This document shows, one piece after another, positions 47,279-62,679 of a stretch of DNA of 64,000 bases. The stretch covers positions 256,001-320,000 of the forward strand of contig CAVWEH010000001.1 of NCBI GenBank assembly GCA_963753975.1, given 5' to 3'. How positions within the stretch are numbered: position 1 is the first letter of the stretch; each line of letters starts with the position of its first letter. The translations under genes and the position numbers were made by a program. The DNA is from an uncultured delta proteobacterium. Its GTDB lineage: Bacteria > Desulfobacterota > Syntrophia > Syntrophales > Smithellaceae. Below the pieces are notes generated by a model. The model saw only the letters and a list, made by a program, of their open reading frames with translations. It was not told the origin of the DNA and ran no database searches.

Positions 47279-47928
47279 TATTTCCAGCCCAAAAATCCGA
47301 AAGCGAGTATATTCATCAAAACCGGCACGGCGTAAATGATTCCCACGGTGATAATTTTAGTTTTCAGCTTTTTTAAGCTGATCACTAAAATCGCCCAGCA
47401 GAAGAATTGGAAGTAGCCGATAAGAAAGATCAGCCAGATACCCTTAAAAGATAAGTTCCAGAAAGGGTATTCCCAGACGAGAAGTCCGCCGATATTCAAA
47501 AGGCATTCGATGAATACGCAAAAAGCGCTGTAACCGATAGCCCAAAACCATTTTTCCGGCAGGCCGAGAATCTTCTCTTTTTTACTTTTCGAAAGAGTGT
47601 GATAGTAGATAATTCCCAGAAGCAGAAACATGAACATTATTTCGATGTTCCAACCCACCAGCGTCCGGAGCGCCGTATCTCCCGGAGTTGTCCAGAGAGC
47701 GGAACGTTGGGTAAGATACATCACCCAGCTGTTCCATGTTTCATTGAAGAAATCCGCGCCGAAAATCGCAAGACCCGCGAAGACGGCATCCCAGTTTTTA
47801 GATTGGCGCGCCTCCTTTATTTCCCGAGTGTAAACATAAAAGACAAAAGCTAAAAGAGGGATTATATACCACTTAAGCATGGTAAGATCTCTCAGACCGT
47901 TTAAGGCTTGTTGGGTTGCTGGCGTCAT
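47275..47928 (-). CDS. Hypothetical integral membrane protein
   Basis: GGAGG RBS, about 6 TM segments, DFFNETWN and GWNIEI motifs. Confidence 0.7.
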   Translation of the reverse strand: MTPATQQALNGLRDLTMLKWYIIPLLAFVFYVYTREIKEARQSKNWDAVFAGLAIFGADFFNETWNSWVMYLTQRSALWTTPGDTALRTLVGWNIEIMFMFLLLGIIYYHTLSKSKKEKILGLPEKWFWAIGYSAFCVFIECLLNIGGLLVWEYPFWNLSFKGIWLIFLIGYFQFFCWAILVISLKKLKTKIITVGIIYAVPVLMNILAFGFLGWKY

Positions 47929-47970
47929 ATAACCTCCTTCTCGATGTTTTGGTTACAAAATGTCTGCTGG

Positions 47971-48076
47971 TGAATTCGGTAGCGAGCTCATTCCCCGTTG
48001 CTTGCTGCGGGGGTAAGCGAGCGCATACTGTCCTTAAGAATCGAAGATTATCCGCAACTTGCCGCGGAGAGCTTCA
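47971..48076. repeat. Non-autonomous palindromic element with two CCCCGCAGCAAGCTGCGGGG-type hairpins
   Basis: TTCCCCGTTGCTTGCTGCGGGGG and TCCGCAACTTGCCGCGGA hairpins; TGAA/TTCA ends; related remnant near 15018. Confidence 0.6.
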
Positions 48077-48202
48077 ATCTTCTTATCAGGCAATAAAATA
48101 TTTATACAGTTGAATTATACTATAACGTCATATAAACAAAAAGACAAAAATTTGTTAATTTCAGCGCTGGATTTTTATAGAGAATGTGTTTAAATAAGCT
48201 TG

Positions 48203-48307
48203 CCCCGTTAGAAATGTTGAAATTATTATATACCTGCTATGATTTGTCAGCCGCGACTTTGATTAAAAAATAAAGATTAGCCCCAAGTTATTACATTTCT
48301 AACGGGG
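48203..48307. mobile_element. CCCCGTTAGA-type inverted-end element, copy 1
   Basis: Perfect 15-bp inverted ends CCCCGTTAGAAATGT / ACATTTCTAACGGGG. Confidence 0.75.
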
Positions 48308-48324
48308 TGAAGGAGAAATGAACT

Positions 48325-49326
48325 TTGATTCTTACCGGTAAATTGAAAATTGCCCTGCTGATTTTGCTTACCATTTTTATAGTCGGCACTGTCGGTTTTC
48401 ATTTTATTGAAAAATGGAGTCTTGTCGACTCTTTTTACGTCACAATTACTACTTTATCGACTGTCGGCTACGGTGATTTCGTACCGCAAACGGTGGAAGG
48501 TAAATTTTTTGCAGTTTTTATAATTATTTTCGGCGTAGGCACGATGCTTTATTCATTCGGCCTGATTTCGGAAACAGTAATCGAGGGCCGCTTGCGCGGT
48601 TTATTGGGGAGGGGTAAATTGGAAAAAATAATCGAAAAAATGAATAATCATTATATCATTTGCGGTTGCGGCCGTATCGGTCTTTTGATTTGCCGTGAAT
48701 TGACCGCGGAAAAAGTGTCTTGCCTCGTTATCGATAACAATCCCGAGGTGATTCAGAAGGCACACGATGAAGGATTTATTTACTGCAAAGGGGATGCGAC
48801 CCAGGATAAAACTTTAATCGAAGCGGGAATCAAGCGGGCCAAGGGTATCGTGTGCGTGCTCCCGTCGGATGCAGAAAATCTCTACGTTATCTTGACTGCG
48901 AAGGAACTCAACCATAATATATATATAATGTCGCGTTCCGAAGACGAAGCATCGGAGCACAGGCTTGTCCGGGCGGGAGCCGATAGAGTTATTTCTCCCT
49001 ATAAGCTGGGAGGGGTCAGGATGGCCATGGCCATTTTACGTCCGGCCATGCTGGATTTTATCGAAATAACGAGCCGCAGACAAAGTCTGGAGCTGCGCAT
49101 GGAAGAAATTCCCATTACGCCGGGCTCACAGTTTATCGGCAAGTCGCTGGAAAATTCGGGAATCCGTCAGGACTACGGGCTGATTATTATCACGGTAAAG
49201 AAAGATTCGGGAAAGATGATTTTCAATCCGCAGGCCGACTATGTTATTGCCGAAGGCGACAGATTGATAGCGATGGGTGAGGATGAGAATGTAAAGAAGC
49301 TGATCAAAGCATCTTTACCCCGTTAA
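48325..49326 (+). CDS. Potassium channel protein with TrkA-N/TrkA-C (RCK) domains
   Basis: TVGYGD selectivity filter, ICGCGRIG, GDAT, FNP..D..I..GD. Confidence 0.92.
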   Translation: MILTGKLKIALLILLTIFIVGTVGFHFIEKWSLVDSFYVTITTLSTVGYGDFVPQTVEGKFFAVFIIIFGVGTMLYSFGLISETVIEGRLRGLLGRGKLEKIIEKMNNHYIICGCGRIGLLICRELTAEKVSCLVIDNNPEVIQKAHDEGFIYCKGDATQDKTLIEAGIKRAKGIVCVLPSDAENLYVILTAKELNHNIYIMSRSEDEASEHRLVRAGADRVISPYKLGGVRMAMAILRPAMLDFIEITSRRQSLELRMEEIPITPGSQFIGKSLENSGIRQDYGLIIITVKKDSGKMIFNPQADYVIAEGDRLIAMGEDENVKKLIKASLPR

Positions 49327-49415
49327 AAATTAAATGGCTTATGCTGCACCATGTATATTTTTTGAGAAGTACTAATAACAGGAAAGTTTATAGTATAAAA
49401 TGATTTCTAACGGGG
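49318..49415. mobile_element. CCCCGTTAGA-type inverted-end element, copy 2
   Basis: CCCCGTTAAAAAT ... ATTTCTAACGGGG; the left end contains the K+ channel stop codon. Confidence 0.7.
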
Positions 49416-49423
49416 AGGAAAAT

Positions 49424-50125
49424 ATGAAAAATAATTATTTGTTTATTCTGAAGAGAAGCGCGCTGCTTGTTTTGTTGATAGCTTTCAGTTTGGGTATATT
49501 AGATTGTGGACCTGTTCTCAGCATTTACAGTGTCAATATGCAGTATGACGCGGCCAAGGCAGTTATTCCGGCAGATTTGAAGGCCGGAGAAAAAATGCGC
49601 GACGCCGTAATTACCATCGCGGAATTTACTGATACACGCCAGGTGGATGATAAAAAAATACTCGGCCGGGTGACGGAGAGAGACGGCGTGAAAGCTCTTG
49701 TATTTCCGAAGTATGTTATACCCACGAAAGCCGTTGCTTACGGCATCAAAGATTATTTGACAAAAGCGGGTTATAAGGTTGCCGATAAGATTGCCCAGTG
49801 GGATCTAAAAGAAGAAACGATCCCGAAGGGATCCGGCAAAGTTCTGATAGGCGGGAACATTGAAGAGCTCGAAGCATCCTGCGAGCGCGGTGTTTTTGCG
49901 AACTCTTATAAGATCAGTTTGAAGCTGACCATTGTTTTTGCGGATCCGGCTAAAGGCAAGATATTATATAAAAGCAAAGTGGAGAGCTTGCTTTCCCGGG
50001 ATGATGTTTCCTTTTCCGAACAGTGGTTCGGAGATCAGGCAAGTAGTGTTCTGGGCGACGCCATTGAAAAAGTATTTCAGGAAAAGGCTGTAGCGCAAAA
50101 GATAAAAGAAGCTTTATCCCGGTAG
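49424..50125 (+). CDS. Putative lipoprotein/exported protein (YajG-like)
   Basis: Hydrophobic signal segment followed by Cys; FTDTR motif; GGAGG RBS. Confidence 0.6.
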   Translation: MKNNYLFILKRSALLVLLIAFSLGILDCGPVLSIYSVNMQYDAAKAVIPADLKAGEKMRDAVITIAEFTDTRQVDDKKILGRVTERDGVKALVFPKYVIPTKAVAYGIKDYLTKAGYKVADKIAQWDLKEETIPKGSGKVLIGGNIEELEASCERGVFANSYKISLKLTIVFADPAKGKILYKSKVESLLSRDDVSFSEQWFGDQASSVLGDAIEKVFQEKAVAQKIKEALSR

Positions 50126-50130
50126 ATTAA

Positions 50131-50232
50131 CCCCGTTAGAGATTAATGAACGTACGGGGATTATACTCAGCAAATTTTTTGGGATGATAAATCGTGAGGG
50201 CTATACAATTTCGGCAGTAATTTCTAACGGGG
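50131..50232. mobile_element. CCCCGTTAGA-type inverted-end element, copy 3
   Basis: CCCCGTTAGAGATTA ... TAATTTCTAACGGGG. Confidence 0.75.
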
Positions 50233-50245
50233 TGAACGAGGTTCA

Positions 50246-50337
50246 CCCCGTTTAGAAATTAGATAACTTAAAGCCTCGGAACCTCGAAAATCTCCTCAGG
50301 AGTTATGTTTCTATGAATAGAAAAATTTCTAACGGGG
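50246..50337. mobile_element. CCCCGTTAGA-type inverted-end element, copy 4
   Basis: CCCCGTTTAGAAATT ... AATTTCTAACGGGG; its interior is homologous to 53457-53547. Confidence 0.8.
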
Positions 50338-52388
50338 AAAATATCCCCCGCTACAATCACGCAAACTTTAACGCGGCCTTAGCCCCGAAGGGCAGGTTCC
50401 GCATTCTGCTGCCGCTGATCCTGATGATGATCTTCCTCTCCCCCTTCCCTGTGGTAGCCCAAGACCTTACTTGCAGCGACCTTCCCAAACTGATGGAAGC
50501 ATTCTACGCCAAACACTACGTGATGAAGAGTACCACCCCGGAGATCAGGATGCACGCTGTGGACCAGATGGTCAAGCGCCTTGATCCCTCTAAAACGCTG
50601 CTGTACGAGTCTGATTTGAAAAAGCTCAAACCGCTTCTCGCGGACCTGTTTGAAGGCGCGGGAAAAGGCAACTGCGCCTCGCTCCAGTCGGTTTATGACC
50701 TGCTTGTTGCCCGGGTACGGGAGAATGAAACCATCGTCAAAAAGATTCTGGGGCCGGACTTCCGTCTGGACATGATGACGGAGCTGAATATCAACGTGGA
50801 CAAACGCCCCTATCTGAAGACAATGACAGAAAAGCAGGGGCTTCTGAAAAAGATCGTGCAATTCCAGATCGAAAACTCACTGCTCGCCGGCATTGACCTG
50901 GCAACAGCTAAAAAGAAGCAGATACACCGCTACGAGTTACAGACGATGCGGGTGGTTGAGCAAAATCCCGCCGAGCTCATTACAACCTCCGCCGAGGCCT
51001 TCGCCCTGGCCCTGGATCCGCACACCAGTTACCTGCCCCCCAAAGAGCTTGAGGATCTCCAGATTCAGATGAATCTTTCTCTGGAGGGGATCGGGGCTAT
51101 TCTGAGCAGCGACACCGGCTTTACCATTATTGAAGAATTGGTTCCCGGGGGCGCCGCTGAGAAAACCGGTCTGTTGAAGCCAAAGGATAAAATCATCGCC
51201 GTGGCTCAGGAAGGGGAAATGCCCGTTGACGTCATCGACATGGATCTGCGCGACGTTATCAGCATGATCCGCGGCAAGAAAGGCACACGAGTAACCCTAA
51301 CGATCCTGCGGCAGGGGAAGCGCAAGGAGCGCTTTGATGTAACCATCACGCGCGACAAGATCGACGTGAAGGAGCAGGAGGCGAAGATCACCTACGAGAT
51401 TCGGAAAGTGAGCGGAAGGCAGTATCGCTTCGGTGTAATCGATCTTCCTTCCTTTTACGGCGGCGAAAAGGGCGGCAAATCCAGTTACGAAGACGTGAAA
51501 AAACTTCTTGCCGAGGCAAAAAGACAGCGAGTGGACGGCATCGTGCTGAACCTGTCGCGCAACGGCGGTGGGCTGCTCGAAGAGGCGGTGCGCCTTACCG
51601 GCCTTTTTATTGGTAATGGTGGAATAGTAGCGGTCAAGGACAGCCAGGGGCGGGAGACGATTCTTGCCAATGGTTCTGCCGCATCGGGAAAGGACGGTGA
51701 CGAACGCCGCATCAATGCGGCCCCTGCGGAGGATCCACGGGCACTCTACCTGGGCCCCCTTGCCGTTCTGACGAGCCGCCTCAGTGCGTCGGCAAGCGAA
51801 ATAGTCGCGGGCGCTCTGCAAGATTACCACCGTGCGGTGATCGTCGGCTCGGACCATACCTTCGGCAAGGGTTCCGTGCAGGCGCTAATGCCGCTGCCCT
51901 GGGAGCTTGGCGCAATGAAGGTCACAACGGCGTTATACTTCCTGCCCGGCGGCAAATCGACGCAGAAGACGGGTGTGATGGCGGATGTCAGGCTGCCCGG
52001 CTGGTTTGTATTAGAAGATATCGGTGAAGCGGCGCTGGACTATCCGCTGCCGGCTCAGGCGATCGAGCCCTTCCTGGGCGTGCGGGAGAAAGCTGCGCCG
52101 CATTGGAAGTCTGTTGACGAGCCACTGATCGCAAGGCTTTCGTCCAAATCGCAGAGCCGCGTGGCGAAAAACGCAAAGTTTGCCAAAATCATCAAAGACA
52201 ACAAAGAAGCCGCGGAAAAGAAGGGCATCATCCAGCTTGATGATTTACGCAAGACGATAAAGGACGAAGACGCAGACATTGAGAATGAAACGCGTTCCGA
52301 ACAAAGGCAAAAGGCCCGGGAGCAGTATGCGCCTTTTGTAAACGAGAGCGTCAACATCCTGCTCGACGAAGTAGTGAGACTCAACTGA
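50313..52388 (+). CDS. prc: Carboxy-terminal processing protease (S41A, Prc/Tsp family)
   Basis: LDPHTSY, LEGIGA PDZ, NGGGLL, SASASEI, TFGKGSVQ. Confidence 0.88.
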   Translation: MNRKISNGENIPRYNHANFNAALAPKGRFRILLPLILMMIFLSPFPVVAQDLTCSDLPKLMEAFYAKHYVMKSTTPEIRMHAVDQMVKRLDPSKTLLYESDLKKLKPLLADLFEGAGKGNCASLQSVYDLLVARVRENETIVKKILGPDFRLDMMTELNINVDKRPYLKTMTEKQGLLKKIVQFQIENSLLAGIDLATAKKKQIHRYELQTMRVVEQNPAELITTSAEAFALALDPHTSYLPPKELEDLQIQMNLSLEGIGAILSSDTGFTIIEELVPGGAAEKTGLLKPKDKIIAVAQEGEMPVDVIDMDLRDVISMIRGKKGTRVTLTILRQGKRKERFDVTITRDKIDVKEQEAKITYEIRKVSGRQYRFGVIDLPSFYGGEKGGKSSYEDVKKLLAEAKRQRVDGIVLNLSRNGGGLLEEAVRLTGLFIGNGGIVAVKDSQGRETILANGSAASGKDGDERRINAAPAEDPRALYLGPLAVLTSRLSASASEIVAGALQDYHRAVIVGSDHTFGKGSVQALMPLPWELGAMKVTTALYFLPGGKSTQKTGVMADVRLPGWFVLEDIGEAALDYPLPAQAIEPFLGVREKAAPHWKSVDEPLIARLSSKSQSRVAKNAKFAKIIKDNKEAAEKKGIIQLDDLRKTIKDEDADIENETRSEQRQKAREQYAPFVNESVNILLDEVVRLN

Positions 52389-52640
52389 AAACGAGCACAG
52401 CAAAGGTTGAAGTGTTAGTCGAACTAATGAAACTCCAATTTCGAAAGCGAAGCACATAGAAATTGGATAGTTGAATTATCCCCGCCATAGGCGGAGGATA
52501 TCGAAGATATCTGTGATATCCCCGAAGCAAAGCGTAGTGGGGTAGTGAGTCCCAAGTTTTAGAAGCGTAGCGCACTGAAATTTGTTGGACGAACTATCCC
52601 CGAAGCAAAGCGTAGTGGGGTAATGACACTCGCTAAAACA
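52372..52640 (+). repeat. GA-mismatch hairpin element cluster D
   Basis: Units at 52372-52426, 52425-52478 and 52543-52596, partial unit from 52621; 28-bp direct repeat TATCCCCGAAGCAAAGCGTAGTGGGGTA (52517, 52595). Confidence 0.85.
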
Positions 52641-52812
52641 GCACCTTTTGGCGTTGTATATCTGTTAGGCAATTGTTCCCATAAAAGGTACATTTAGTGA
52701 ATAATAAGACAATGCGTCCTGGGGGATATTCAAAAACAAATAATTGTCCGAAAATTTAGTTGGTGCACAAAATGCACATTGCAAATAATAATAAGCTTGG
52801 GGATAGCAGGAC

Positions 52813-53195
52813 GTGACTGAAAAAAATATCATAATGCAAGATACAAAAGGGCAAGTGGTTTTATACAAGAACCGGCTGGAAGTCCGTTTAGAAAAGGATA
52901 CTGTCTGGTTAAGCCTGAGTCAATTGGTAGATTTATTCGAACGTGACAAGTCCGTTATCTCAAGACATTTACTCAATATATTTAAATCAAAGGAGTTAGA
53001 CAAAGCATCAACTGTTGCATATTTTGCAACAGTTCAAAAAGAGGGTGGTCGAATTATTGAACGGAATATCGAATATTTCAACTTAGATGCAATCATCTCT
53101 GTTGGCTATCGTGTTAATTCAATTCGAGGCACTCAATTCCGCATTTGGGCAACAAATGTTTTGCGGCAGCATCTGGTTGCCGGTTATACCATTTA
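52813..53195 (+). pseudogene. Truncated RhuM/virulence-family (Fic-associated) DNA-binding protein
   Basis: TVWLS...LF, ISRHL.NIF, FNLDAIISVGYRVNS.RGTQFRIWAT; family-like sequence stops at GYTI, exactly where CCCCGTTAGAG begins. Confidence 0.75.
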
Positions 53196-53565
53196 CCCCG
53201 TTAGAGGCGAATATTTATGCATTATGTGTACGTGCTTAAGAGCATAAAAGACAAAAAAATGTATACGGGGTGCACAGAGGATTTACGGAAGCGTTTTCGT
53301 GAGCATAATATTGGGAAGGTTAATTCCACAAAAGGGCGAGGGCCTTTTGAATTAATATACTATGAGGCCTCGTCAGATAAAACAGATGCTTTTGCCCGAG
53401 AGAAATATCTGAAATCAGGGATGGGGAAAGATCATGTTCTATGTAAAGGGGATTTACCCCGTTAGAAATTGCCTAACTTAAAGCTCCAGAACTTAGAAAA
53501 CCTCCTCAGGAGTTAGTTTTATATGAATAAAAAGATTTCTAACGGGGAAAAAATCTCTAACGGGA
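53196..53565. mobile_element. CCCCGTTAGA-type element enclosing a GIY-YIG gene and a nested element copy
   Basis: Left end CCCCGTTAGAG (53196), right end CTCTAACGGGA (53555-53565); nested copy at 53457-53547. Confidence 0.65.
53217..53465 (+). CDS. Small stand-alone GIY-YIG nuclease (C-terminus possibly altered)
   Basis: YVYVL..YTG.T.DL..R..EHN, LIYYE, A..RE.YLKSG. Confidence 0.88.
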   Translation: MHYVYVLKSIKDKKMYTGCTEDLRKRFREHNIGKVNSTKGRGPFELIYYEASSDKTDAFAREKYLKSGMGKDHVLCKGDLPR

Positions 53566-54245
53566 TAAAAAGCTGGCCCAAGGACGACCGGCCGAGGGAG
53601 AAACTGCTTAAGCGCGGCGCAGGCACTTTGAGCAACTCCGAGCTTCTGGCGATACTTCTGCGCACCGGAGTTAAAGGCAACAGCGCCATTGATCTCGCGA
53701 GAAAAATACTTAGTAAATTCGATACATTTCGCAATATGAGCCACTCTGATATCCGCGATTGGAAAGAATTTAAAGGTTTAGGCCCCGCCAAAATTGCACA
53801 AATAAAAGCCGCGTTGGAAATCGGCAGGCGTTTCCGTGAAGATGAAGTAGTGAGTGTCAAGCAAAAAATTGCCACGGCCGGGGATGTCGTCGATATCATT
53901 ATGCCGCAAATGCGCGACCTCAAGACGGAGGTCTTTAAAGTTGTCTACCTCAACAGCAACAACGGAATAATTGATATTGCCGATGCGGCTCAAGGCACTG
54001 TAAATCAGGCCGCGCCGATTGTCCGGGAAATTATTCATACGGCATTACAAAAATTTGCCGCCTCTATTATTTGTGTTCACAATCACCCCAGCGCGAATAT
54101 TGCACCCAGCCCGGAAGACAAAAAAATAACGGCGGAGTTATCAGCCGCATGCAAGCTGATGGGAATCAGAATGCTGGATCATATCATCATCGGCGACGGT
54201 AGCTACTTTAGTTTTACAGATGAGGGAATGCTTGAATCAATATGA
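53523..54245 (+). CDS. radC: RadC family JAB-domain protein
   Basis: RPREKL, ELLAILLRTG, GLGPAK, HNHPS..PS.ED, LDHIIIG. Confidence 0.93.
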   Translation: MNKKISNGEKISNGIKSWPKDDRPREKLLKRGAGTLSNSELLAILLRTGVKGNSAIDLARKILSKFDTFRNMSHSDIRDWKEFKGLGPAKIAQIKAALEIGRRFREDEVVSVKQKIATAGDVVDIIMPQMRDLKTEVFKVVYLNSNNGIIDIADAAQGTVNQAAPIVREIIHTALQKFAASIICVHNHPSANIAPSPEDKKITAELSAACKLMGIRMLDHIIIGDGSYFSFTDEGMLESI

Positions 54246-57037
54246 TTAAGAGCGAAGCTCAAACCAGAAAAGAGATTATTGATAAACGGCTCTTGCAGGT
54301 TGGCTGGAATGTGAAGAATCCTCTTCACGCCACGGAGGAGTTAAGTATTTGGATTGGTTTGCAGGAAGGCGTGCATGAGCCGCAGACTATTTATCAGGGG
54401 CAGCTTTTTGTAGATTATGCACTTCTTGGTGAAGATGGCACGCCGGTTGCTGTTGTAGAAGCGAAAAAGACTTCAACTGAGGCGGAGCGAGGCAAAGAGC
54501 AGGCGCGTAATTATGCTGAGAAAATTCAGAAAAATCACGGCGGGCCTATACCCTTCGTTCTTTACACAAACGGCTACGACATTTTCTTCTGGGATACAGA
54601 TCGTTACCCACCCCGCAAGGTTTACGGATTTCCATCAAAAGCCGACTTGGAGCGCATCCAATTTTTGCGTGATAACAGCAGACCTCTATCCAGTGAATTA
54701 ATCAATACTATAATAGCTGGAAGGCCATACCAAATAGAGGCAATTCGTTCTGTTTTGGAAGCTCTGGAAAAGAAACGGCGTAAATTTCTCTTGGTTATGG
54801 CAACTGGCACAGGCAAAACACGCACCTGCATGGCGCTGCTTGATGTTCTAATGCGCACTAATTGGGTTCAGCGCGTTTTATTTCTTGTGGATCGCATCGC
54901 TTTACAGGAGCAAGCACTTGATACATTCAAGGAGTATCTACCTAATGCGCCTATATGGCCAAAGCAAGGTGAAAAAGAATTTGTGACAGATCGGCGTGTC
55001 TATGTATCAACTTATCCGACAATGCTCAATATCATTGAACAGGAAAATTGTCCGCTGACAGCTCATTTTTTCGATCTGATTGTTGCTGATGAAAGTCATC
55101 GTTCCATTTATAACGTTTATAAAAATATTTTCGAGTATTTTGATTCCGTACAGCTAGGGCTTACGGCTACGCCGAAGGATCATGTTGACCACAATACTTT
55201 CTCGCTTTTTGAATGCGACAACGGATTGCCGACATTTGCTTATTCGTATGAAGAAGCAATCAATAACATCCCGGCTTATTTATGTGATTTTGAAGTATTG
55301 AAAATAAGAACAAAATTTCAACAAGAAGGCATTAATAGTAAGACAATTGCGGAACACGACAGAAAGAAACTATTAATTGAAGGTCGTGATCCGGATGAAA
55401 TCAGCTTCGAAGGAACAGAGCTGGAGATAAAAGTATCCAACAAAGGCACTAATGCGCTCATTGTCCGCGAGTTTATGGAAGAGTGTATTAAAGACGCAGA
55501 TGGCGTGCTGCCCGGTAAAACCATCTTTTTTGCGTTATCTAAAAAGCATGCATATCGGCTCTGTGAAGTATTTAACGCTCTATATCCCGAATATAAAGGA
55601 CAGCTCGCCGAAGTAATCATTTCCGACGTAAAGGGAGTGCACGGCAAAGGAGGCATTCTTGACCGTTTCAAAAACAACGACATGCCACGTATTGCTATAA
55701 GCGTTGACATGCTAGATACCGGCATTGATGTGCGGGAAGTTGTAAATCTGGTTTTTGCCAAGCCTGTTTTCTCCTACACAAAATTTTGGCAGATGATTGG
55801 CAGAGGTACCCGTGTTCTTGATCCTGAAAAGATCAAACCCTGGTGTCCATCCAAAGATAAATTTCTGATCATGGACTGCTGGGATAATTTTGAATATTTC
55901 AAAATGAATCCCAAAGGCAAAGAGCAGAAGCCTACCCGGCCTCTTCCCGTAAGATTGTTTGAAGCCAGGTTGGACAAACTGCAAGCGGCGCTGGAAATGC
56001 AGGATGAAACAATATCTCAAAAGACCGTACAGCAAATCAAAAAAGATATTGATTTACTTCCAGCCAACTCCGTTATTGTTCTTGATGGGAAAGAATACAT
56101 CGATTATGCGCAAGACGTATCTTTCTTTAGTAAAATTACACCGGAAGCAGTCGGATTTCTGCGGCAAAATGTTGCGCCAATTATGCGGGCAAAATCTGAT
56201 GCTGATTTTAAAGCCATGCATTTTGAATTGAATGTTGTAGAGGTATCGACAGCTCATCTTGTAAAAGATAAAGAACGTTTTGAGGTATTGAAAGAAGGTT
56301 TAGTCGAAATCATTAGTGAACTTCCGCTTTCGGTAAATATTGCTGCTAAACAACAAGCGTATATTGAAAAAGTGACCGGTAATAATTTTTGGCACACCCT
56401 GGTAGATAATGATTTTGATGAAATGGTGGTCAGGCTTGCCCCGTTGATGAAGTTCAGGGAGCAGGACAAAATAATTGAAGTTAAAACGGATTTAACCGAT
56501 CTTCTAACTGTTAAAGAATATATAGAGTTTGGGCCAGAACATGAACGGCTGACGATTAATAAATATCGTCAGAAGGTTGAAGAATTAATCAGGGAAATGG
56601 TTAAAACCAATAAATCTCTGCAAAAAATAATTGCTGGTGAAGATTTAACCAATCAAGAGATAGAAGAACTTGCAACAATCCTGCGCGACAAATATCCCAA
56701 TGTCACGGAATTAATACTACAAGAGATTTATGATAACCGTAGTGCCAAATTTATTCAGTTTATCAAGCATGTGCTTGGGCTGGAACCATTGGAGACCTTT
56801 ACGGAGAAAGTATCGTTTGCCTTTGATGAATTTATCCGGGCGCACAACAACTATGGACAACAACAAATTCAATTTTTGCAGACATTAAAAACATTCGTTC
56901 TACAAAAAGGCAAAATTGAGAAAAGCGATTTAGTCCATGCGCCATTTACGCAACTACACCCACAGGGGATTCGCGGTGTATTTAAACCTGGCGAAATTGA
57001 CGAAATTATAAACCTGACGCAGAAGCTTGCGGCATAA
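54242..57037 (+). CDS. hsdR: Type I restriction enzyme R subunit (EcoEI/EcoAI-like)
   Basis: DY..VVEAK nuclease motif, MATGTGKT, DESH, QMIGRGTR, C-terminal PFT..P.G. Confidence 0.93.
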   Translation: MIKSEAQTRKEIIDKRLLQVGWNVKNPLHATEELSIWIGLQEGVHEPQTIYQGQLFVDYALLGEDGTPVAVVEAKKTSTEAERGKEQARNYAEKIQKNHGGPIPFVLYTNGYDIFFWDTDRYPPRKVYGFPSKADLERIQFLRDNSRPLSSELINTIIAGRPYQIEAIRSVLEALEKKRRKFLLVMATGTGKTRTCMALLDVLMRTNWVQRVLFLVDRIALQEQALDTFKEYLPNAPIWPKQGEKEFVTDRRVYVSTYPTMLNIIEQENCPLTAHFFDLIVADESHRSIYNVYKNIFEYFDSVQLGLTATPKDHVDHNTFSLFECDNGLPTFAYSYEEAINNIPAYLCDFEVLKIRTKFQQEGINSKTIAEHDRKKLLIEGRDPDEISFEGTELEIKVSNKGTNALIVREFMEECIKDADGVLPGKTIFFALSKKHAYRLCEVFNALYPEYKGQLAEVIISDVKGVHGKGGILDRFKNNDMPRIAISVDMLDTGIDVREVVNLVFAKPVFSYTKFWQMIGRGTRVLDPEKIKPWCPSKDKFLIMDCWDNFEYFKMNPKGKEQKPTRPLPVRLFEARLDKLQAALEMQDETISQKTVQQIKKDIDLLPANSVIVLDGKEYIDYAQDVSFFSKITPEAVGFLRQNVAPIMRAKSDADFKAMHFELNVVEVSTAHLVKDKERFEVLKEGLVEIISELPLSVNIAAKQQAYIEKVTGNNFWHTLVDNDFDEMVVRLAPLMKFREQDKIIEVKTDLTDLLTVKEYIEFGPEHERLTINKYRQKVEELIREMVKTNKSLQKIIAGEDLTNQEIEELATILRDKYPNVTELILQEIYDNRSAKFIQFIKHVLGLEPLETFTEKVSFAFDEFIRAHNNYGQQQIQFLQTLKTFVLQKGKIEKSDLVHAPFTQLHPQGIRGVFKPGEIDEIINLTQKLAA

Positions 57038-57061
57038 AGTAAATAGTAAGGAATAGTTGTT

Positions 57062-58612
57062 ATGTTGATGCCCGAAATGAAATCTCTGATCAATGCTCTA
57101 TGGGACAAATTCTGGAGTGGCGGCATATCTAATCCGCTTACCGCAATTGAGCAAATATCTTATCTGCTATTCATGCGCCGTCTGGATGAAATGGATACAA
57201 AACTAGTAAATGACGCCGAGTTTACGGGCGATAATTATAACTCCATTTTCAAGGGGAAGTTTAAACTGCCATCGGGTGAAACCATTGATAAAAAAACTTT
57301 ACGCTGGAGTCACTTCAAACAGATGGAAGGCGGTGAAATGCTCCGTCATGTGCAAATCAATGTATTTCCATTCATTAAGCAGCTTAATGGTAGTAATACA
57401 ACCTTCACGAAACATATGGAAGACGCTGTGTTTATTATACCTAAAGCTTCGCTTCTAGTGGAAGCAGTCATCATTATCGACCGGCTATATGATGAAATTG
57501 AAAAACAGATGCAGTCTGGTCAAATTTTTCATGACACGCAGGGCGATATGTATGAATTTTTGCTTTCTGAAATTGCTACTTCCGGTAAAAACGGACAGTT
57601 TCGCACGCCACGCCACATCATTGCGCTCATGTGCGAGCTTGTTGACCCGAGGATTCCAGATTTGGTTTGTGATCCTGCCTGCGGTACCAGCGGTTTTTTG
57701 CTCGGCGCTTATCAACACATCCTTACCCAACATACGAGTAAGGAGAATCTTTTTATCGATGAAAATGGTTTTACCCGCGGTAGCCTGGGTGACAAGCTTA
57801 CTGACAAAAAGCTCTGGAAGCATTTGAAAGAGACAACTTTTTACGGGTATGATTTTGACTCAACCATGGTGCGTATCGGCCTTATGAACATGATTCTGCA
57901 TGGCATTACCAATCCCAATATTAAGCGGAAAGACACGCTTTCCAAAAAATATAACGAAGACAATAAATACAACTGTATCTTTGCCAACCCGCCATTCAAA
58001 GGCAGCATTGACAAAGGGGATATCAACGAAACCCTATCACTTGCGACTACCAAGACAGAACTTTTATTTGTCAATCGCATTATTAATTCTTTGCGCATCG
58101 GCGGCCGTGCAGCGGTGATTGTGCCGGATGGCGTGCTCTTTGGTTCAAGCAACGCGCATAAAGATTTGCGCAAAATGCTTATTGAAAAGTGCGAACTTCA
58201 GGGCGTAGTATCCATGCCCAGTGGTGTGTTCAAACCCTATGCCGGAGTGAGCACAGCGATTATTGTTTTTGTAAAAGGTGGCACAACAGAAAAAGTTTGG
58301 TTCTACGACATGCAGACCGACGGATTTTCACTGGATGACAAAAGAGAGAAAATCGAGGCAAATGATCTGCCGGATATTGTAAAGAATTGGAAAGTTCGCA
58401 ACAAAAGCAAAAGCGATAACCGCACAGCCAAACACTTCTTTGTGCCTGTAAAAGAAATCATTGATAACGGTTTTGACCTTTCCATCAATCGCTATAAAGA
58501 AACCATATATATTACAACTGAGTATGAGAAGCCGAAAGTGATTTTGGGAAAGATTGAAGCTATTGAGAAGGAAATAATGGATGGGATCAAAGAATTAAAG
58601 AAGATAATGTAA
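57062..58612 (+). CDS. hsdM: Type I RM methyltransferase subunit (N6-adenine)
   Basis: GQFRTPRH, DPACGTSGFL, ANPPF, VPDGVLF. Confidence 0.95.
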   Translation: MLMPEMKSLINALWDKFWSGGISNPLTAIEQISYLLFMRRLDEMDTKLVNDAEFTGDNYNSIFKGKFKLPSGETIDKKTLRWSHFKQMEGGEMLRHVQINVFPFIKQLNGSNTTFTKHMEDAVFIIPKASLLVEAVIIIDRLYDEIEKQMQSGQIFHDTQGDMYEFLLSEIATSGKNGQFRTPRHIIALMCELVDPRIPDLVCDPACGTSGFLLGAYQHILTQHTSKENLFIDENGFTRGSLGDKLTDKKLWKHLKETTFYGYDFDSTMVRIGLMNMILHGITNPNIKRKDTLSKKYNEDNKYNCIFANPPFKGSIDKGDINETLSLATTKTELLFVNRIINSLRIGGRAAVIVPDGVLFGSSNAHKDLRKMLIEKCELQGVVSMPSGVFKPYAGVSTAIIVFVKGGTTEKVWFYDMQTDGFSLDDKREKIEANDLPDIVKNWKVRNKSKSDNRTAKHFFVPVKEIIDNGFDLSINRYKETIYITTEYEKPKVILGKIEAIEKEIMDGIKELKKIM

Positions 58613-58613
58613 G

Positions 58614-59771
58614 ATGCGACTAGTGAACATTACTGAAGCAGTTGAAAATACAAATAGCCGTGTTAAACCATTTACTGGCCAGCGCCAATATATGGCTACC
58701 GGCGATTTATCTAAAAACAAAATTAATGAAATGATGGCAGTTGACTATGAAACAAAACCAAGTCGTGCTGATTTACTTGTAAATGCTGGCCAAATTATTT
58801 TGGCGCGCATGAAAGCCACAAATAAAGTTCTTTTAATTGATCAATCCAGTAAAGATTTTATTGTTTCCACTGGGTTTATAACACTTACGCCAAAGAAAGG
58901 GTTCAATTCTGGTTATCTATCTCATTATTTTAAGTCTGGTTTTTTTCAATCACAAAAAGATAAATATTGTACTGGTGCAACTCAAAAAGCAATAAACAAT
59001 ACTTCCTTAAAAAAAATAAACGTTCCTTATTGTTCTATAGATGAACAACAAAAAATAGCTGCTATTCTCGACCAAGCCGATGCCCTGCGGAAAAAGCGCC
59101 AAGAGTCGCTCCGACTTCTGGATGCGCACTTGAAGTCGATGTTTCTGGAGATGTTCAAAAAAGGAACCCTTAATTGGAAAATCTGTAAAATAAAAGATAT
59201 TGCTGAGAATAAAAAAGGAAGCATGAGGACGGGCCCGTTTGGAAGCAGTCTGCTACATAGTGAATTTGTAGAAGAAGGCATAGCTGTACTCGGCATTGAC
59301 AATGCTGTGGAGAATAAATTCTTATGGAAAGAAAGAAGATATATTACTAAAGAGAAGTATTCTCAGCTGAAACAATACACCGTTCGTCCTGGTGATATTA
59401 TTATTACTATCATGGGAACATTAGGTAGATCCGCAGTGATTCCAGAAAATATTCCTCTTTCTATAAATACAAAGCATTTAGCTTGTATTACTTTAAGTAG
59501 AGAAATTGCTAATCCATATTTTATTAATTACACATTCCAATCTGATCCGGACGTAATTCGTCAGCTAAGTGGGAAGAAACGTGGCGCTATTATGGATGGA
59601 TTAAATCTGACGATAATTAAAGAATTAGACATAAAGTTGCCTCCTTTAGCATTGCAGGAAAAGTTTGTTACGATATTGAAAAAGGTCGAATTTCAAAAAG
59701 ATCAAATGAATAAATCCCTCACCGAAATTGACACTCTCTTCAACGCTCTTTCACAACGGTATTTCGGGTGA
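58614..59771 (+). CDS. hsdS: Type I RM specificity subunit
   Basis: Two TRDs with conserved EQQKIAAILD and PPLALQEKF helices. Confidence 0.92.
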   Translation: MRLVNITEAVENTNSRVKPFTGQRQYMATGDLSKNKINEMMAVDYETKPSRADLLVNAGQIILARMKATNKVLLIDQSSKDFIVSTGFITLTPKKGFNSGYLSHYFKSGFFQSQKDKYCTGATQKAINNTSLKKINVPYCSIDEQQKIAAILDQADALRKKRQESLRLLDAHLKSMFLEMFKKGTLNWKICKIKDIAENKKGSMRTGPFGSSLLHSEFVEEGIAVLGIDNAVENKFLWKERRYITKEKYSQLKQYTVRPGDIIITIMGTLGRSAVIPENIPLSINTKHLACITLSREIANPYFINYTFQSDPDVIRQLSGKKRGAIMDGLNLTIIKELDIKLPPLALQEKFVTILKKVEFQKDQMNKSLTEIDTLFNALSQRYFG

Positions 59772-59890
59772 AGATAAAGATGGTTGGTGAATTTATTTCA
59801 AAGAGATCATGGCAACCATCAACGGCGATAGGAATTTATAGTGGATAATTAGCTGCGACATTCAAACAAACGAGTAAATAGGATTAGCGC

Positions 59891-60718
59891 GTGCAACGGC
59901 TTAATGTGAGACAATCTCAGATTAGAGAATGTATTGAAAAATCGCTCTTCGCGATTGATCAAACACCGCATTTCCATAAAGGGGAAATCCTTCTTTTACA
60001 ACTCGTTAAAACTGAAGCTCAAGGTTTAGGCAAACTGCGCGCGCGAATTGAATTTGCGCTCGTCTATGACCGCTACGAAGCTGACTATGCAGGCGAGATA
60101 AGTCGTCAACATTGGCCGCAGGCGGGAAAGACATGGAAATATATTCTTGTTTGTTCCGATACAATACCCACTATTCCATTTAGTCTGGAAGAGCTGCAAC
60201 TTTCAAATAAGTATGCAGGCCAAACCAATCCTCTGGCAATTAGTCAAGAAGACGAAGTTGTAATATCTCCTTATGTGTGGGGTAAATTAACCGGCTACGA
60301 ACTCAGGGATACGTTTGGCCCGAGTTTGGTTAAAGAAACACTTGGTAATTATGACGTGATTACACATCCCAAAAAGCAAAAAAAGATTATTGTTCCTGAA
60401 CACGAAGAATTCTATCGCGATCCCTTTTTATCCGAATCTTTAAAAGCGCTTTATGATCACAGATGCCAGGTTTGCGGAATGAATTTTAGAATTAAGTACG
60501 AAGAGCCATTTGCAGAAACTCATCATATTGATTCTTTGAGTAGCGGAGGATTGGATATCAGCAAAAATATTATTGTCACCTGCCCGAATCATCATCGAAT
60601 AATCCACAAAACTAGCGCTGAATTTGATCGCGCAAAACTTTTATACAAATATCCAAATGGATTAGAAGAGCGGTTAGTATTAGCTGATCACTTCGAACAA
60701 AAATCATTTTGGGCGTAG
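59891..60718 (+). CDS. HNH endonuclease with uncharacterised N-terminal domain
   Basis: CQVCG..ETHHI..L..GG...NIIVTCPNHH. Confidence 0.82.
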   Translation: MQRLNVRQSQIRECIEKSLFAIDQTPHFHKGEILLLQLVKTEAQGLGKLRARIEFALVYDRYEADYAGEISRQHWPQAGKTWKYILVCSDTIPTIPFSLEELQLSNKYAGQTNPLAISQEDEVVISPYVWGKLTGYELRDTFGPSLVKETLGNYDVITHPKKQKKIIVPEHEEFYRDPFLSESLKALYDHRCQVCGMNFRIKYEEPFAETHHIDSLSSGGLDISKNIIVTCPNHHRIIHKTSAEFDRAKLLYKYPNGLEERLVLADHFEQKSFWA

Positions 60719-60796
60719 GCGCGAAAAAAACACAAAAAACGTTATTAATCAATATATTCGACATATTGCCGTATATTGACAGGCCTGGCAGGAAAT

Positions 60797-60843
60797 CAAA
60801 TTAGCGGCAATTTATTTGACTTATTGCCGATAATTTGTATACT
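60797..60843 (+). promoter_or_regulatory. Sigma70-type promoter with flanking inverted-repeat operator
   Basis: TTGACT (60816)-16 bp-TATACT; IR CAAATTAGCGGCAAT / ATTGCCGATAATTTG (1 mismatch). Confidence 0.7.
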
Positions 60844-61590
60844 AGCGCAAGGAGGCTTAGTAAAAAAACGGATAATTTATTTAAACATTTTGAAAATCGG
60901 GAATCGTTTACCACAAATGAAATTTTCGGTTTTTTCTCTCAAACACAGCCCAATATTAAAAAAGCAACCGTAAATTGGCGGATTTACAATCTTGTCCAAA
61001 AGGGTTTATTAAGAAAAATCGGTCGCGGAATATATTCTTTAGGCAAAGAAAATTGTTTCTCTCCAATTCTTGACAAGAAACAAAAAAATATTTTCGTCCT
61101 GATTAAAAAGCAATTCCCTCTTATCACCTTTTGCTGTTGGCATACTGCTTTGTTAAAAGAATTTTTTCAGCATGTATCAGTGTATGATTTTCTACTGGTC
61201 GAAGTGGAACGCGAAGCAATAGATTCCGTTTTTCTTTCTATCAAAGAGACTAACAAAGACACTTTCAAAGAACCGTCGCGCGATGTGATGGAAAATTATG
61301 TATTCAATGGCAAAGACGCTATAATTGTTAAATCCCTGATCAGCGAAGCTCCTCTTCAGGATATTGATAATATAATTGTGCCGACTATAGAAAAGATTCT
61401 TGTTGATTTATACGCAGATCGTGAAATTTTCTTTTTCCTGCAAGGCAATGAAATGCTGAGCATCTTCAAAAGCGCGCTGGGAAAATATACGGTTAATACG
61501 GACAGGCTTTTGCGTTACGCAAAAAGAAGGAATAAGAGAGAAGAACTGCAAAAAATATTAGCCCAAATAAACGGCAAAAATAGGGAATAG
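60835..61590 (+). CDS. AbiEi-like antitoxin / transcriptional regulator (DUF6577-like); start uncertain
   Basis: wHTH TVNWRIYNLVQKG..IGRGIY, LISEAP, PTIEKILVD, LLRYAKRR. Confidence 0.75.
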   Translation: MYTSARRLSKKTDNLFKHFENRESFTTNEIFGFFSQTQPNIKKATVNWRIYNLVQKGLLRKIGRGIYSLGKENCFSPILDKKQKNIFVLIKKQFPLITFCCWHTALLKEFFQHVSVYDFLLVEVEREAIDSVFLSIKETNKDTFKEPSRDVMENYVFNGKDAIIVKSLISEAPLQDIDNIIVPTIEKILVDLYADREIFFFLQGNEMLSIFKSALGKYTVNTDRLLRYAKRRNKREELQKILAQINGKNRE

Positions 61591-61605
61591 TGCCAAAAAT
61601 TTGAT

Positions 61606-62679
61606 ATGATTTCAAAAGACGCATTAAAACCGGAATGGATAAAGAAGGTATCTGCCGAAAACCGCAAGGCAGATAAGATTCTTGTTGAAAAAGTCATCCG
61701 CGCTTTGCTTCTTCTGGAAGGTCTTGCGGAAACCGGCTTGCCCTTTGTTTTTAAAGGCGGCACTTCCGTAATGCTGCTTCAGAAAATTCCCCGAAGATTT
61801 TCCATTGACATTGATATAATCGTACCGGAGAAGAAAAACTTTGAAGCGCTTTTTGCAAAATTCATTAAAGAGAAAAGCTTCACCAGATTTGAGTTTCAGA
61901 AAAGAGATTCGTCTTCAGAAATCAATAAACTCCACTACAAGTTTTTTTATACTCCTGCACATCAAAAGAATATTGCCGAAGACAATATCATGCTCGATAT
62001 TCTTATAGAATCATCAAAATACCAAAACGTTATTTCCCGAGACATTGATTTGTCGTTTGTCAAACAGGACGGATCACCTGCTCAGGTAAAAATTCCCAGC
62101 AAAGAAGATATTCTGGGCGATAAACTGACCGCCTTTGCGCCAAACACTACGGGAATTCCCTACCAAAAGAGCGGCTTTAGTATGGCCATGGAGATTATAA
62201 AACAATTATACGATATAGGGAATCTGTTCGAAGATATCAGCGATATAAAAGTGGTTGCCGAAACATTTAAAAATATCGCACAAACGGAAATGAAATACCG
62301 CGGACTTACGAAAGATGTAAAAATTGTATTGGATGATATTTTAGCCACAGCGCTTTGCCTCGCCACCAGGGGTAAGTCAGGCAAAGGTGACTTTGCGGCC
62401 CTGCAAAACGGTATATCGCAGACCAGAGCTTATATTTTCTCCGAAAGTTACCACATAGAAAAAGCCATTGTTCATGCGGCGCGCGCGGCGTATCTGACAA
62501 AACTCATTGATACCGGCGCCAATAAATTTGTCCGTTTTGAAAATGCCCAACAAATACTTGATTGGCAAATCGAAGCGCCGTTGGACACAAAGCTTAACAA
62601 ACTCAAGAAGAGCAACCCCGAGGCATTTTTCTATTGGTATCAGTTTTATTTGATAAATAAACGGGGCGACACAATTTAG
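61606..62679 (+). CDS. AbiEii/AbiGii family nucleotidyltransferase toxin
   Basis: FVFKGGTS, RRFSIDIDI, GDKLTAF, KQLYD. Confidence 0.88.
   Translation: MISKDALKPEWIKKVSAENRKADKILVEKVIRALLLLEGLAETGLPFVFKGGTSVMLLQKIPRRFSIDIDIIVPEKKNFEALFAKFIKEKSFTRFEFQKRDSSSEINKLHYKFFYTPAHQKNIAEDNIMLDILIESSKYQNVISRDIDLSFVKQDGSPAQVKIPSKEDILGDKLTAFAPNTTGIPYQKSGFSMAMEIIKQLYDIGNLFEDISDIKVVAETFKNIAQTEMKYRGLTKDVKIVLDDILATALCLATRGKSGKGDFAALQNGISQTRAYIFSESYHIEKAIVHAARAAYLTKLIDTGANKFVRFENAQQILDWQIEAPLDTKLNKLKKSNPEAFFYWYQFYLINKRGDTI

Follow-up and report, generated by a model that had tools for sequence, protein, structure and literature searches.

Small GIY-YIG nucleases accompanied by dispersed repeats are known from Neisseria. 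SsnA is a single-domain GIY-YIG protein of 94 aa that cuts ssDNA beside the stem of the NTS hairpin; the arrangement NTS-ssnA-NTS was termed IS-like, and a domesticated mobile element was suggested (Chenal et al. 2025, PMC11893778). GIY-YIG insertions not tied to introns occur in CPR rRNA genes (PMC11270868), and PMC1564403 leaves open whether further GIY-YIG members are parasites.

The locus analysed here lies in a stretch of 64,000 bp (the window) from a Smithellaceae genome of 2.43 Mb, assembled in six contigs and 95 % complete. We consider it a damaged member of a family of mobile elements of ~275 bp, whose GIY-YIG nuclease likely mobilises the elements together with gene-less derivatives of 26-110 bp, and we give this reading a probability of roughly 60 %. 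No description of the element or its motif was found in the literature searched, outside which subscription papers largely lay, and the supplements of PMC11893778 could list some of the proteins. The term GIY-YIG had no occurrence in the available portions of PMC10969869 and PMC3733652.

Comparison with described systems

Like the Ssn system (cd10448; PMC11893778), the family combines a small single-domain GIY-YIG gene with flanking repeats that are dispersed in the genome. However, each SRM of Ssn is a self-contained hairpin of 20-50 nt according to the same text, whereas the two ends described here together make up one inverted repeat, and the last residues of the protein are encoded in the right one. 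The target duplications and start-codon targeting that we observed are not reported for Ssn in the available part of PMC11893778. The published SRM pattern was present within 500 bp of none of our 80 loci, while the positive control returned it in 15 of 20 Ssn-type loci, in 11 of them on both sides. In a quick tree of 89 columns, with proxies standing in for SsnA and CDD, 23 SRM-flanked or similar proteins formed one branch (SH-aLRT 100, length 1.69) that held none of the inverted-repeat proteins; the nuclease is 37 % identical to an SRM-flanked homologue. Membership in Ssn was rejected on the absence of the motif and, as far as such a tree goes, on the separate branch. Ssn-type GIY-YIG genes with SRM hairpins do occur in 24 of 81 genomes of this order (L309, L312, L319-L338). 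They were not found in the own genome of the window, and some relatives, e.g. G019, carry both nuclease/repeat systems together.

With classical insertion sequences and MITEs, of which Correia/NEMIS and RUP are examples, the elements share terminal inverted repeats, a short target duplication and gene-less derivatives with the same ends, as well as nesting, adjacent deletions and start codons donated to host genes. They differ from classical insertion sequences in their size of ~275 bp and in having an 86-aa hydrolytic nuclease in place of a DDE transposase, and from both groups in uneven duplication length, heterogeneous interiors of the derivatives and base-by-base covariation of the ends. 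The short elements resemble MITEs in being short and gene-less, in sharing their ends with a longer coding element and in having filled and empty alleles, but they lack a homogeneous high-copy interior.

Similarly to IS200/IS605 and REP/RAYT, the enzyme is very small, the non-autonomous repeats are clustered and a tetranucleotide target is preferred, and hairpin recognition in ssDNA is probable. The elements of these known groups have subterminal hairpins and no target duplication; unlike these systems, our element lacks an HUH/Y1 domain, and none was found in the own genome either. The GIY-YIG homing endonucleases (I-TevI) and the GIY-YIG inserts in CPR rRNA have the same catalytic fold and a selfish life style. 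In contrast to I-TevI-type homing, the element has inverted-repeat ends, no intron and no separate DNA-binding domain, and it occupies many unrelated target sites with varying flanks rather than one allelic site. TIGR01453, used as a test for homing DNA-binding domains, scored far below its cut-off. B. subtilis YazA and the UPF0213-like gene of the own genome group on a distant branch and lack such ends.

The locus and its gene context

The exact 10-mer CCCGTTAGA occurs 10 times in the window, always inside 48204-53564 (5.4 kb; expected 0.32; 0 of 100 shuffles), and 19 times genome-wide. Beyond the window cluster there are about nine more short pairs with a start-to-start spacing of 21-103 bp. 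The initial annotation had seen five inverted-end elements of ~90-105 bp within these 5.4 kb and a sixth pair of ends around an 82-aa GIY-YIG gene, which it proposed as a candidate autonomous partner of a MITE-like family. We recovered the five short elements at the same places, with lengths of 91-105 bp. The features are as follows.

48203..48307, no strand assigned: short element of 105 bp, just 5′ of the ribosome-binding site of the K+ channel/TrkA gene
49318..49415, + strand: short element of 98 bp with left end CCCCGTTAAA, spanning the TrkA stop; its interior opens like the nuclease N-terminus (LHHVYFLRSTNNRKVYS)
50131..50232, no strand assigned: short element of 102 bp at the end of the lipoprotein-like gene
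50246..50337, + strand: short element of 92 bp with an additional T in the left end; it gives the S41 peptidase ORF its predicted ATG and first codons (MNRKISNG)
52813..53195, + strand: 5′ 128 codons of a RhuM-family gene (Pfam PF13310), ending at the left end of the element
53196..53207, + strand: left inverted repeat of the nuclease element (CCCCGTTAGAGG), 21 bp 5′ of the ATG, positioned as in homologues
53217..53429, + strand: GIY-YIG nuclease codons 1-71, with Y5, Y16, G18, R26 and E62 intact and with the last 15 residues and its own right end gone
53420..53429, + strand: 10-bp microhomology GATGGGGAAA at the joint of the nuclease gene and the outer radC-start element, from the G010 alignment
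53430..53565, + strand: remainder of an older outer short element at the radC start, with right end TCTAACGGGA at 53556-53565
53457..53547, + strand: inner short element of 91 bp, nested in the outer one; it gives radC its predicted ATG and N-terminus (MNKKISNG)
53523..54245, + strand: radC (JAB) host gene, first ~13 codons element-derived, with a type I restriction-modification operon downstream

As the initial annotation had remarked, the left end at 53196 coincides with the truncation point of rhuM: it follows directly after codon 128, and 12 of 14 rhuM homologues extend ~200 codons further. The native radC start is apparently located 5′ of the rhuM fragment at 52813. The right ends at 53523-53565, 50313-50337 and 49400-49423 provide in-frame ATG starts, reading MNKKISNG in radC, MNRKISNG in the S41 peptidase and MISNG in the lipoprotein-like ORF.

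Positions 54242-62679, after radC, hold a defence island with type I R-M (hsdR, hsdM, hsdS), an HNH nuclease, DUF6577 and an AbiEii-family gene, and the gene cassette downstream of radC varies among relatives. PADLOC gave no match that would identify the nuclease as part of a defence system. A known RNA family or intron at 47500-54500 was discarded, as Rfam returned only a chance miRNA match there, and the COG2827 RNA motif, considered as a lead, was absent from the Rfam results for the same interval. The window also contains two further dispersed hairpin repeat families at 47971-48080 and 52420-52630, one of the CCCCG-N-GCTTGCTGCGGGG type and one of the CCCCGAAGCAAAGCGTAGTGGGG type. Both have many copies in relatives, some of them nested within CCCGTTAGA-ended elements.

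The nuclease and its ends across phyla

The 82-aa ORF at 53217-53465 matches the Pfam GIY-YIG domain with an E-value of 2e-16. In its complete form the unit is ~275 bp long and its sole gene, between inverted repeats of 12-13 bp, encodes an 86-residue GIY-YIG nuclease with a single domain (PF01541 only; pLDDT of the structure model 92). The catalytic residues Y5, Y16, G18, R26 and E62 are invariant in 62 aligned sequences, and the dN/dS of the family is 0.04-0.18 where measurable; the nuclease is under purifying selection. The nearest solved structures by both sequence and fold are UPF0213 (1zg2), Slx1 and HIGLE, types of nucleases that are branch- or flap-selective.

Scanning genome contigs with nuclease codons 1-71, we confirmed 132 relatives and analysed the best 80 of them, which come from Smithellaceae, Omnitrophota, Planctomycetota, many Patescibacteria and others. 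Among the relatives listed, the closest homologues of the window's nuclease belong to Smithellaceae, and the identity across phyla is 75-87 %. The protein search gave 4963 relatives at E ≤ 0.001, and the best 120 of the 4963 are mostly 86 aa long. A check proposed in advance was whether the ends are enriched around homologues. A motif-free inverted repeat (score of at least 10) surrounds the gene in 60 of the 80 loci but in only 6 of 914 equally shaped control windows, and the loci without it are mostly distant homologues at tRNA genes (13 of 80). Typically the left end lies 13-31 bp 5′ of the ATG and the right end encodes the final residues (RFLSLTG-stop). The association holds in the reverse direction as well: when only the ends were searched, in pairs 263-293 bp apart (at least 122 from metagenomes and 2 viral), 95 of 124 among the matches listed enclosed the nuclease, 22 were nested short elements and 7 something else. 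The GIY-YIG gene is thus the only gene in 95 of the 102 non-nested end pairs among the matches listed.

The variant ends CCCGCCAA, CCCTGTGA, CCCGGTGG and CCGTTACATC are altered on both arms and track the nuclease subclades. For the CCCGCCAAA-type ends, two of the four genomes of the type have further pairs: G499 has a short copy of 69 bp and G497 a pair of 184 bp; CCCTGTG/CCCGGTG end types had no short copy in any of three genomes. The G497 pair (C5:8229-8412) surrounds an apparent tRNA-like sequence, which suggests that the ends can bracket passenger DNA. One metagenome contig carries two identical full elements, spaced by 5.7 kb, which share the left flank but differ in the right flank (L220 and L221). 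A phage or plasmid vehicle was considered and dropped, as plasmid and phage collections contained only distant matches (<46 % identity) and neither of the 2 viral end pairs held the nuclease. The mini-element family is real, widespread and apparently unpublished.

Junctions and target preference

Junctions were analysed in 89 of the 95 elements among the matches listed, after one exact duplicate and five short-flanked elements had been dropped; near-orthologous copies were kept. The terminal base is complementary between the ends in 87 of 89 elements (shuffle mean 41, max 57), and three positions inside the end core match in 88, 85 and 72. Perfect repeats of at least 12 bp occur in 71 (shuffle mean 19); counted from CCCG inward, 79 of 89 have a perfect repeat of 11-13 bp in addition to the covarying terminal base.

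An exact direct duplication of 4 bp flanks 33 of the 89 elements (shuffle mean 11.8, max 21), while 5 have one of 3 bp, 3 have one of 5 bp and 48 have none; when lengths of 3-6 bp are taken together, 41 are duplicated (shuffle mean 14.9). The duplicated tetramers include the unusual TCTA, TTCG, TATG, TGCG and TGGA. The right flank reads TGAA in 45 and TAAA in 11 of the 89 elements, and 16 of the 33 other right flanks carry a 3-5-bp duplication on the left. The left flank is TTTA/TTCA in 25 of 89. We rejected the idea that this TTCA/TTTA is an inverted copy of the current right flank, since 4 of 89 elements have an exact 4-bp inverted match, fewer than the 7 averaged in shuffles.

Where the flanks were sufficiently long (80 elements), an ATG/GTG stands at the right junction in 54, 42 of which stay open for 80 codons in that frame compared with 1 and 2 in the other frames, and the junction provides a stop codon in 55. 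Many copies therefore occupy a host start codon and leave the gene unbroken. At host start and stop codons, T(G/A)AA is strongly preferred as the target.

The nuclease copy of the window

The interval 53196-53565 had been read as one pair of ends enclosing the nuclease gene. The gene is there, but a single 370-bp element is ruled out by the end types, by the alignment with G010 and by contigs from public runs. The left end at 53196 is C-type and the right end at 53556-53565 A-type, compared with complementary terminal bases in 87 of 89 intact elements among the matches listed. Beyond GATGGGGAAA, the window aligns with the outer radC-start element of G010 and not with the 3′ end of the nuclease gene; in G010 this outer element is intact (TCCCG..CGGGA) and holds the same nested inner element. 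In contigs of runs X2 and X6 the outer element has its own left end at 53420, a contig of X2 skips ~53443-53545 and so represents the outer element without the inner one, and a contig of X3 joins 52787 to 53574, with the whole block absent. These contigs come from relatives at 85 % likeness and not from this strain, since the public runs share only 5-6 % of words with this DNA.

The order of events reconstructed from these alignments is likely that the outer element was inserted at about radC codon 9, the inner element became nested in it and a deletion then occurred at the microhomology. The deletion likely took the last 15 codons of the nuclease together with its right end and the left end of the outer element, and probably the remainder of rhuM as well. 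Because it fused the nuclease copy to a separate, older element, the locus is not an intact autonomous element. The suggested role of autonomous partner is well supported for the family, in which the ends bound the homologues and select the gene, and fails for this fused copy without its own right end. Damage had been suspected from a C-terminus that runs into the nested element; the copy is indeed damaged, but by deletion and fusion to the older element and not by an insertion into its 3′ end. In the structure model (pLDDT 92), the lost residues account for most of a long C-terminal helix (68-85), and the window's copy is therefore probably inactive. Its dN/dS against the six closest homologues is 0.04-0.11.

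Short elements and empty sites

All five short elements of the window fold as end-to-end stems (z -2.5 to -5.6). Their interiors are 38-52 % identical in nine of ten pairs, the exception being 50246/53457 with 78 %, and the interiors of short elements elsewhere in the own family and in Patescibacteria are likewise diverse. Most short elements are therefore not recent copies of one founder. They derive at least partly from full elements, because 6 of 46 short elements of at least 55 bp (4 distinct) open with nuclease-like codons. These six include the orthologue of the 49318 element, which reads MLHYIYVLGSTNNRKVYS in G002; the 49318 element itself gave a weak tblastn match to the nuclease (E 9.5).

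Empty sites, which had also been named beforehand as something to look for, were found at several junctions when the neighbourhood was compared in 20 regions from relatives. At the TrkA-start junction (window 48203) there is a full nuclease element in G010, other short elements in G002 and G011, and nothing in G005, G013, G015 and G021. The 49318 junction is empty in G005, G010, G011, G013, G015 and G021. The lipoprotein-end junction (window 50131) holds a full nuclease element in G002 and a different short one in G011, and further full nuclease elements lie 5′ of the S41 gene (G010, G011) and at the radC end (G019).

Short elements tend to occur together with the nuclease. In 300 Patescibacteria they are present in 9 of 9 genomes with a nuclease at E<1e-28 and in 28 of 291 without, in a set that leaves out the centre genome, with genomes that are not independent and a cut picked after the lists had been seen. 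At E<1e-18 the counts, again from non-independent genomes, are 24 of 64 with and 13 of 236 without; in the own family minus G000, subject to the same dependence, 4 of 6 with a close nuclease and 27 of 109 without. Of the 37 Patescibacteria genomes bearing short elements, 28 have no close nuclease. Rich examples without a close nuclease are G232 (56 copies), G204 and G356 (22 each), G074 and G006, and these ends do not border the GIY-YIG loci checked in G232, G204 and G356. G375, in turn, carries a canonical element but lacks short copies. In genomes without the nuclease, the autonomous copy could have been lost or the assembly could be incomplete; another mobiliser fits too.

Sister clades at tRNA and RNase P genes

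Small GIY-YIG genes of sister clades lie directly 5′ of a tRNA gene at L003:1408-1851 (own genome, C5:719393), L296-L306, L315, L057, L058, L061, L064, L067, L070 and L074. The tRNA is tRNA-Ser in the own family and tRNA-Gln in others, and a duplicate of its 5′ part precedes the GIY-YIG gene. The same nuclease group seems to have a second life style here, one that targets tRNAs. The tRNA-Ser beside the sister nuclease (L003:1759-1795) contains TAACGGGAT, the same 9 bases as the right end of the element, possibly by chance or as a hint at the origin of the ends. At L356:1455-1800 and L052:2960-3310, GIY-YIG genes bounded by inverted repeats lie within the 5′ part of the RNase P RNA gene, a placement based on an Rfam match from the right arm in L356 and on the visible motif only in L052. 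Presumably the two arms would pair as the P3 helix and the gene would occupy its loop.

What moves the elements

The nuclease probably mobilises the elements: it would nick the paired ends, the T(G/A)AA target or both, and host repair would complete the insertion; the enzymatic steps are reconstructed by analogy with related nucleases. When the element DNA becomes single-stranded, the two ends would pair into a stem. Acting in the manner of Slx1 and SsnA, its structure-selective relatives, the nuclease would then nick the foot of the stem, a T(G/A)AA target close by or both. The copy-in would have to be finished by polymerase and ligase of the host, because hydrolysis is the only DNA reaction known for GIY-YIG enzymes, none of which is known to carry out strand transfer. 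An insertion completed by repair would explain the uneven junctions (direct duplications of 3-5 bp, inverted TTYA or none) as well as the local hopping. When the element lands on a start codon, the host gene would keep its ATG and the nuclease would gain a stop codon.

A bolder version, to which we would give slightly less than even odds, is that the lone 86-aa GIY-YIG protein is the transposase of a class of ~275-bp transposons. It would recognise the stem of the paired ends, insert on start and stop codons with host repair and move almost any passenger of 25-110 bp, while the sister clades would use other ends or tRNA/RNase P landing sites.

The strongest competing explanation, still unlikely in our opinion, is that another transposase or recombinase moves the elements in trans and that the GIY-YIG gene is cargo which aids persistence, e.g. 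through cleavage of sites that are empty or from which the element was excised, the role of TnpB in IS605 elements. DDE transposition is usually recognised by terminal inverted repeats and a 4-bp duplication, some element-rich genomes have no close nuclease, and G232 and G285 carry Y1 or DDE genes. However, the full-length ends enclose nothing but the nuclease among the matches listed, and the end variants follow the nuclease subclades. None of the 17 transposase loci of element-rich genomes is bounded by these ends. Ten Y1 loci in G232 and G285 lack such ends at their borders, though one has a short element upstream. On 3.03 Mb of sequence enriched for the nuclease, 204 of 220 exact ends pair either at up to 130 bp (111) or at 251-320 bp (93), and the four ends at a spacing of 321-3000 bp represent the window locus, a full-plus-short pair counted twice and one orphan. 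The absence of a transposase or recombinase from the window, which had been asserted earlier, was borne out by Pfam in the 44 ORFs scanned, and in the own genome (95 % complete) PF01797 (Y1), PF13612, PF01609, PF13701 and PF00665 had no match. The genome-wide partner search covered these five families in a few draft genomes. A DDE or Y1 partner was thus sought and not found in the five families of the own genome or at the 17 transposase loci, and in the families and genomes covered the ends did not turn out to be the terminal repeats of a known DDE insertion sequence.

We find it improbable that the spread is homing-like and poor in enzymology, with a nuclease that just breaks DNA near loosely similar sites, a hairpin-ended unit copied by microhomology-guided repair or template switching and short elements that need the nuclease little or not at all. 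The radC target does resemble the right end (GGGAT is common to both), junctions are uneven with the TTTA/TTCA left flank in 25 of 89 among the matches listed, and the interiors of short elements are unrelated to each other; against this, unusual tetramers are among the exact 4-bp duplications, from which a staggered cut at a constant distance from the ends follows, and the ends are conserved across phyla. Equally little weight goes to a host-domesticated Ssn-like system, in which the nuclease would cut incoming ssDNA at the repeats to modulate transformation or recombination, with the spread of repeats as a by-product: Neisseria SsnA acts in this way at NTS hairpins (PMC11893778) and the window's copy adjoins radC, rhuM and the type I R-M operon, but the gene is not tied to one locus and changes junctions within a single genus, close homologues exist in only 7 of 116 family genomes with at least 2 of them broken, the SRM motif is missing from all 80 loci, and target duplications together with the 75-87 % cross-phylum identity point to a mobile unit.

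Implications

If mobilisation by the nuclease is true, a fold known only for DNA hydrolysis would suffice for transposition, in a unit far below the size of a classical insertion sequence, and the enzyme would be of a type not described for transposition in the literature searched. The family would offer a cleaner test case for the published, unproven idea of ssnA-type nuclease/repeat units as mobile elements. As exact ends, target duplications and empty sites are defined, the 86-aa protein and 275 bp of DNA suffice for an assay. The locus itself contributes a reconstructed fusion and, for a single neighbourhood compared over a genus, filled, short and empty alleles. The repeat family rewrites gene starts, here the N-termini of radC and the S41 peptidase, and promotes local deletions; if our reading is true, the source has been identified for a repeat family abundant in Patescibacteria, Omnitrophota and Smithellaceae.
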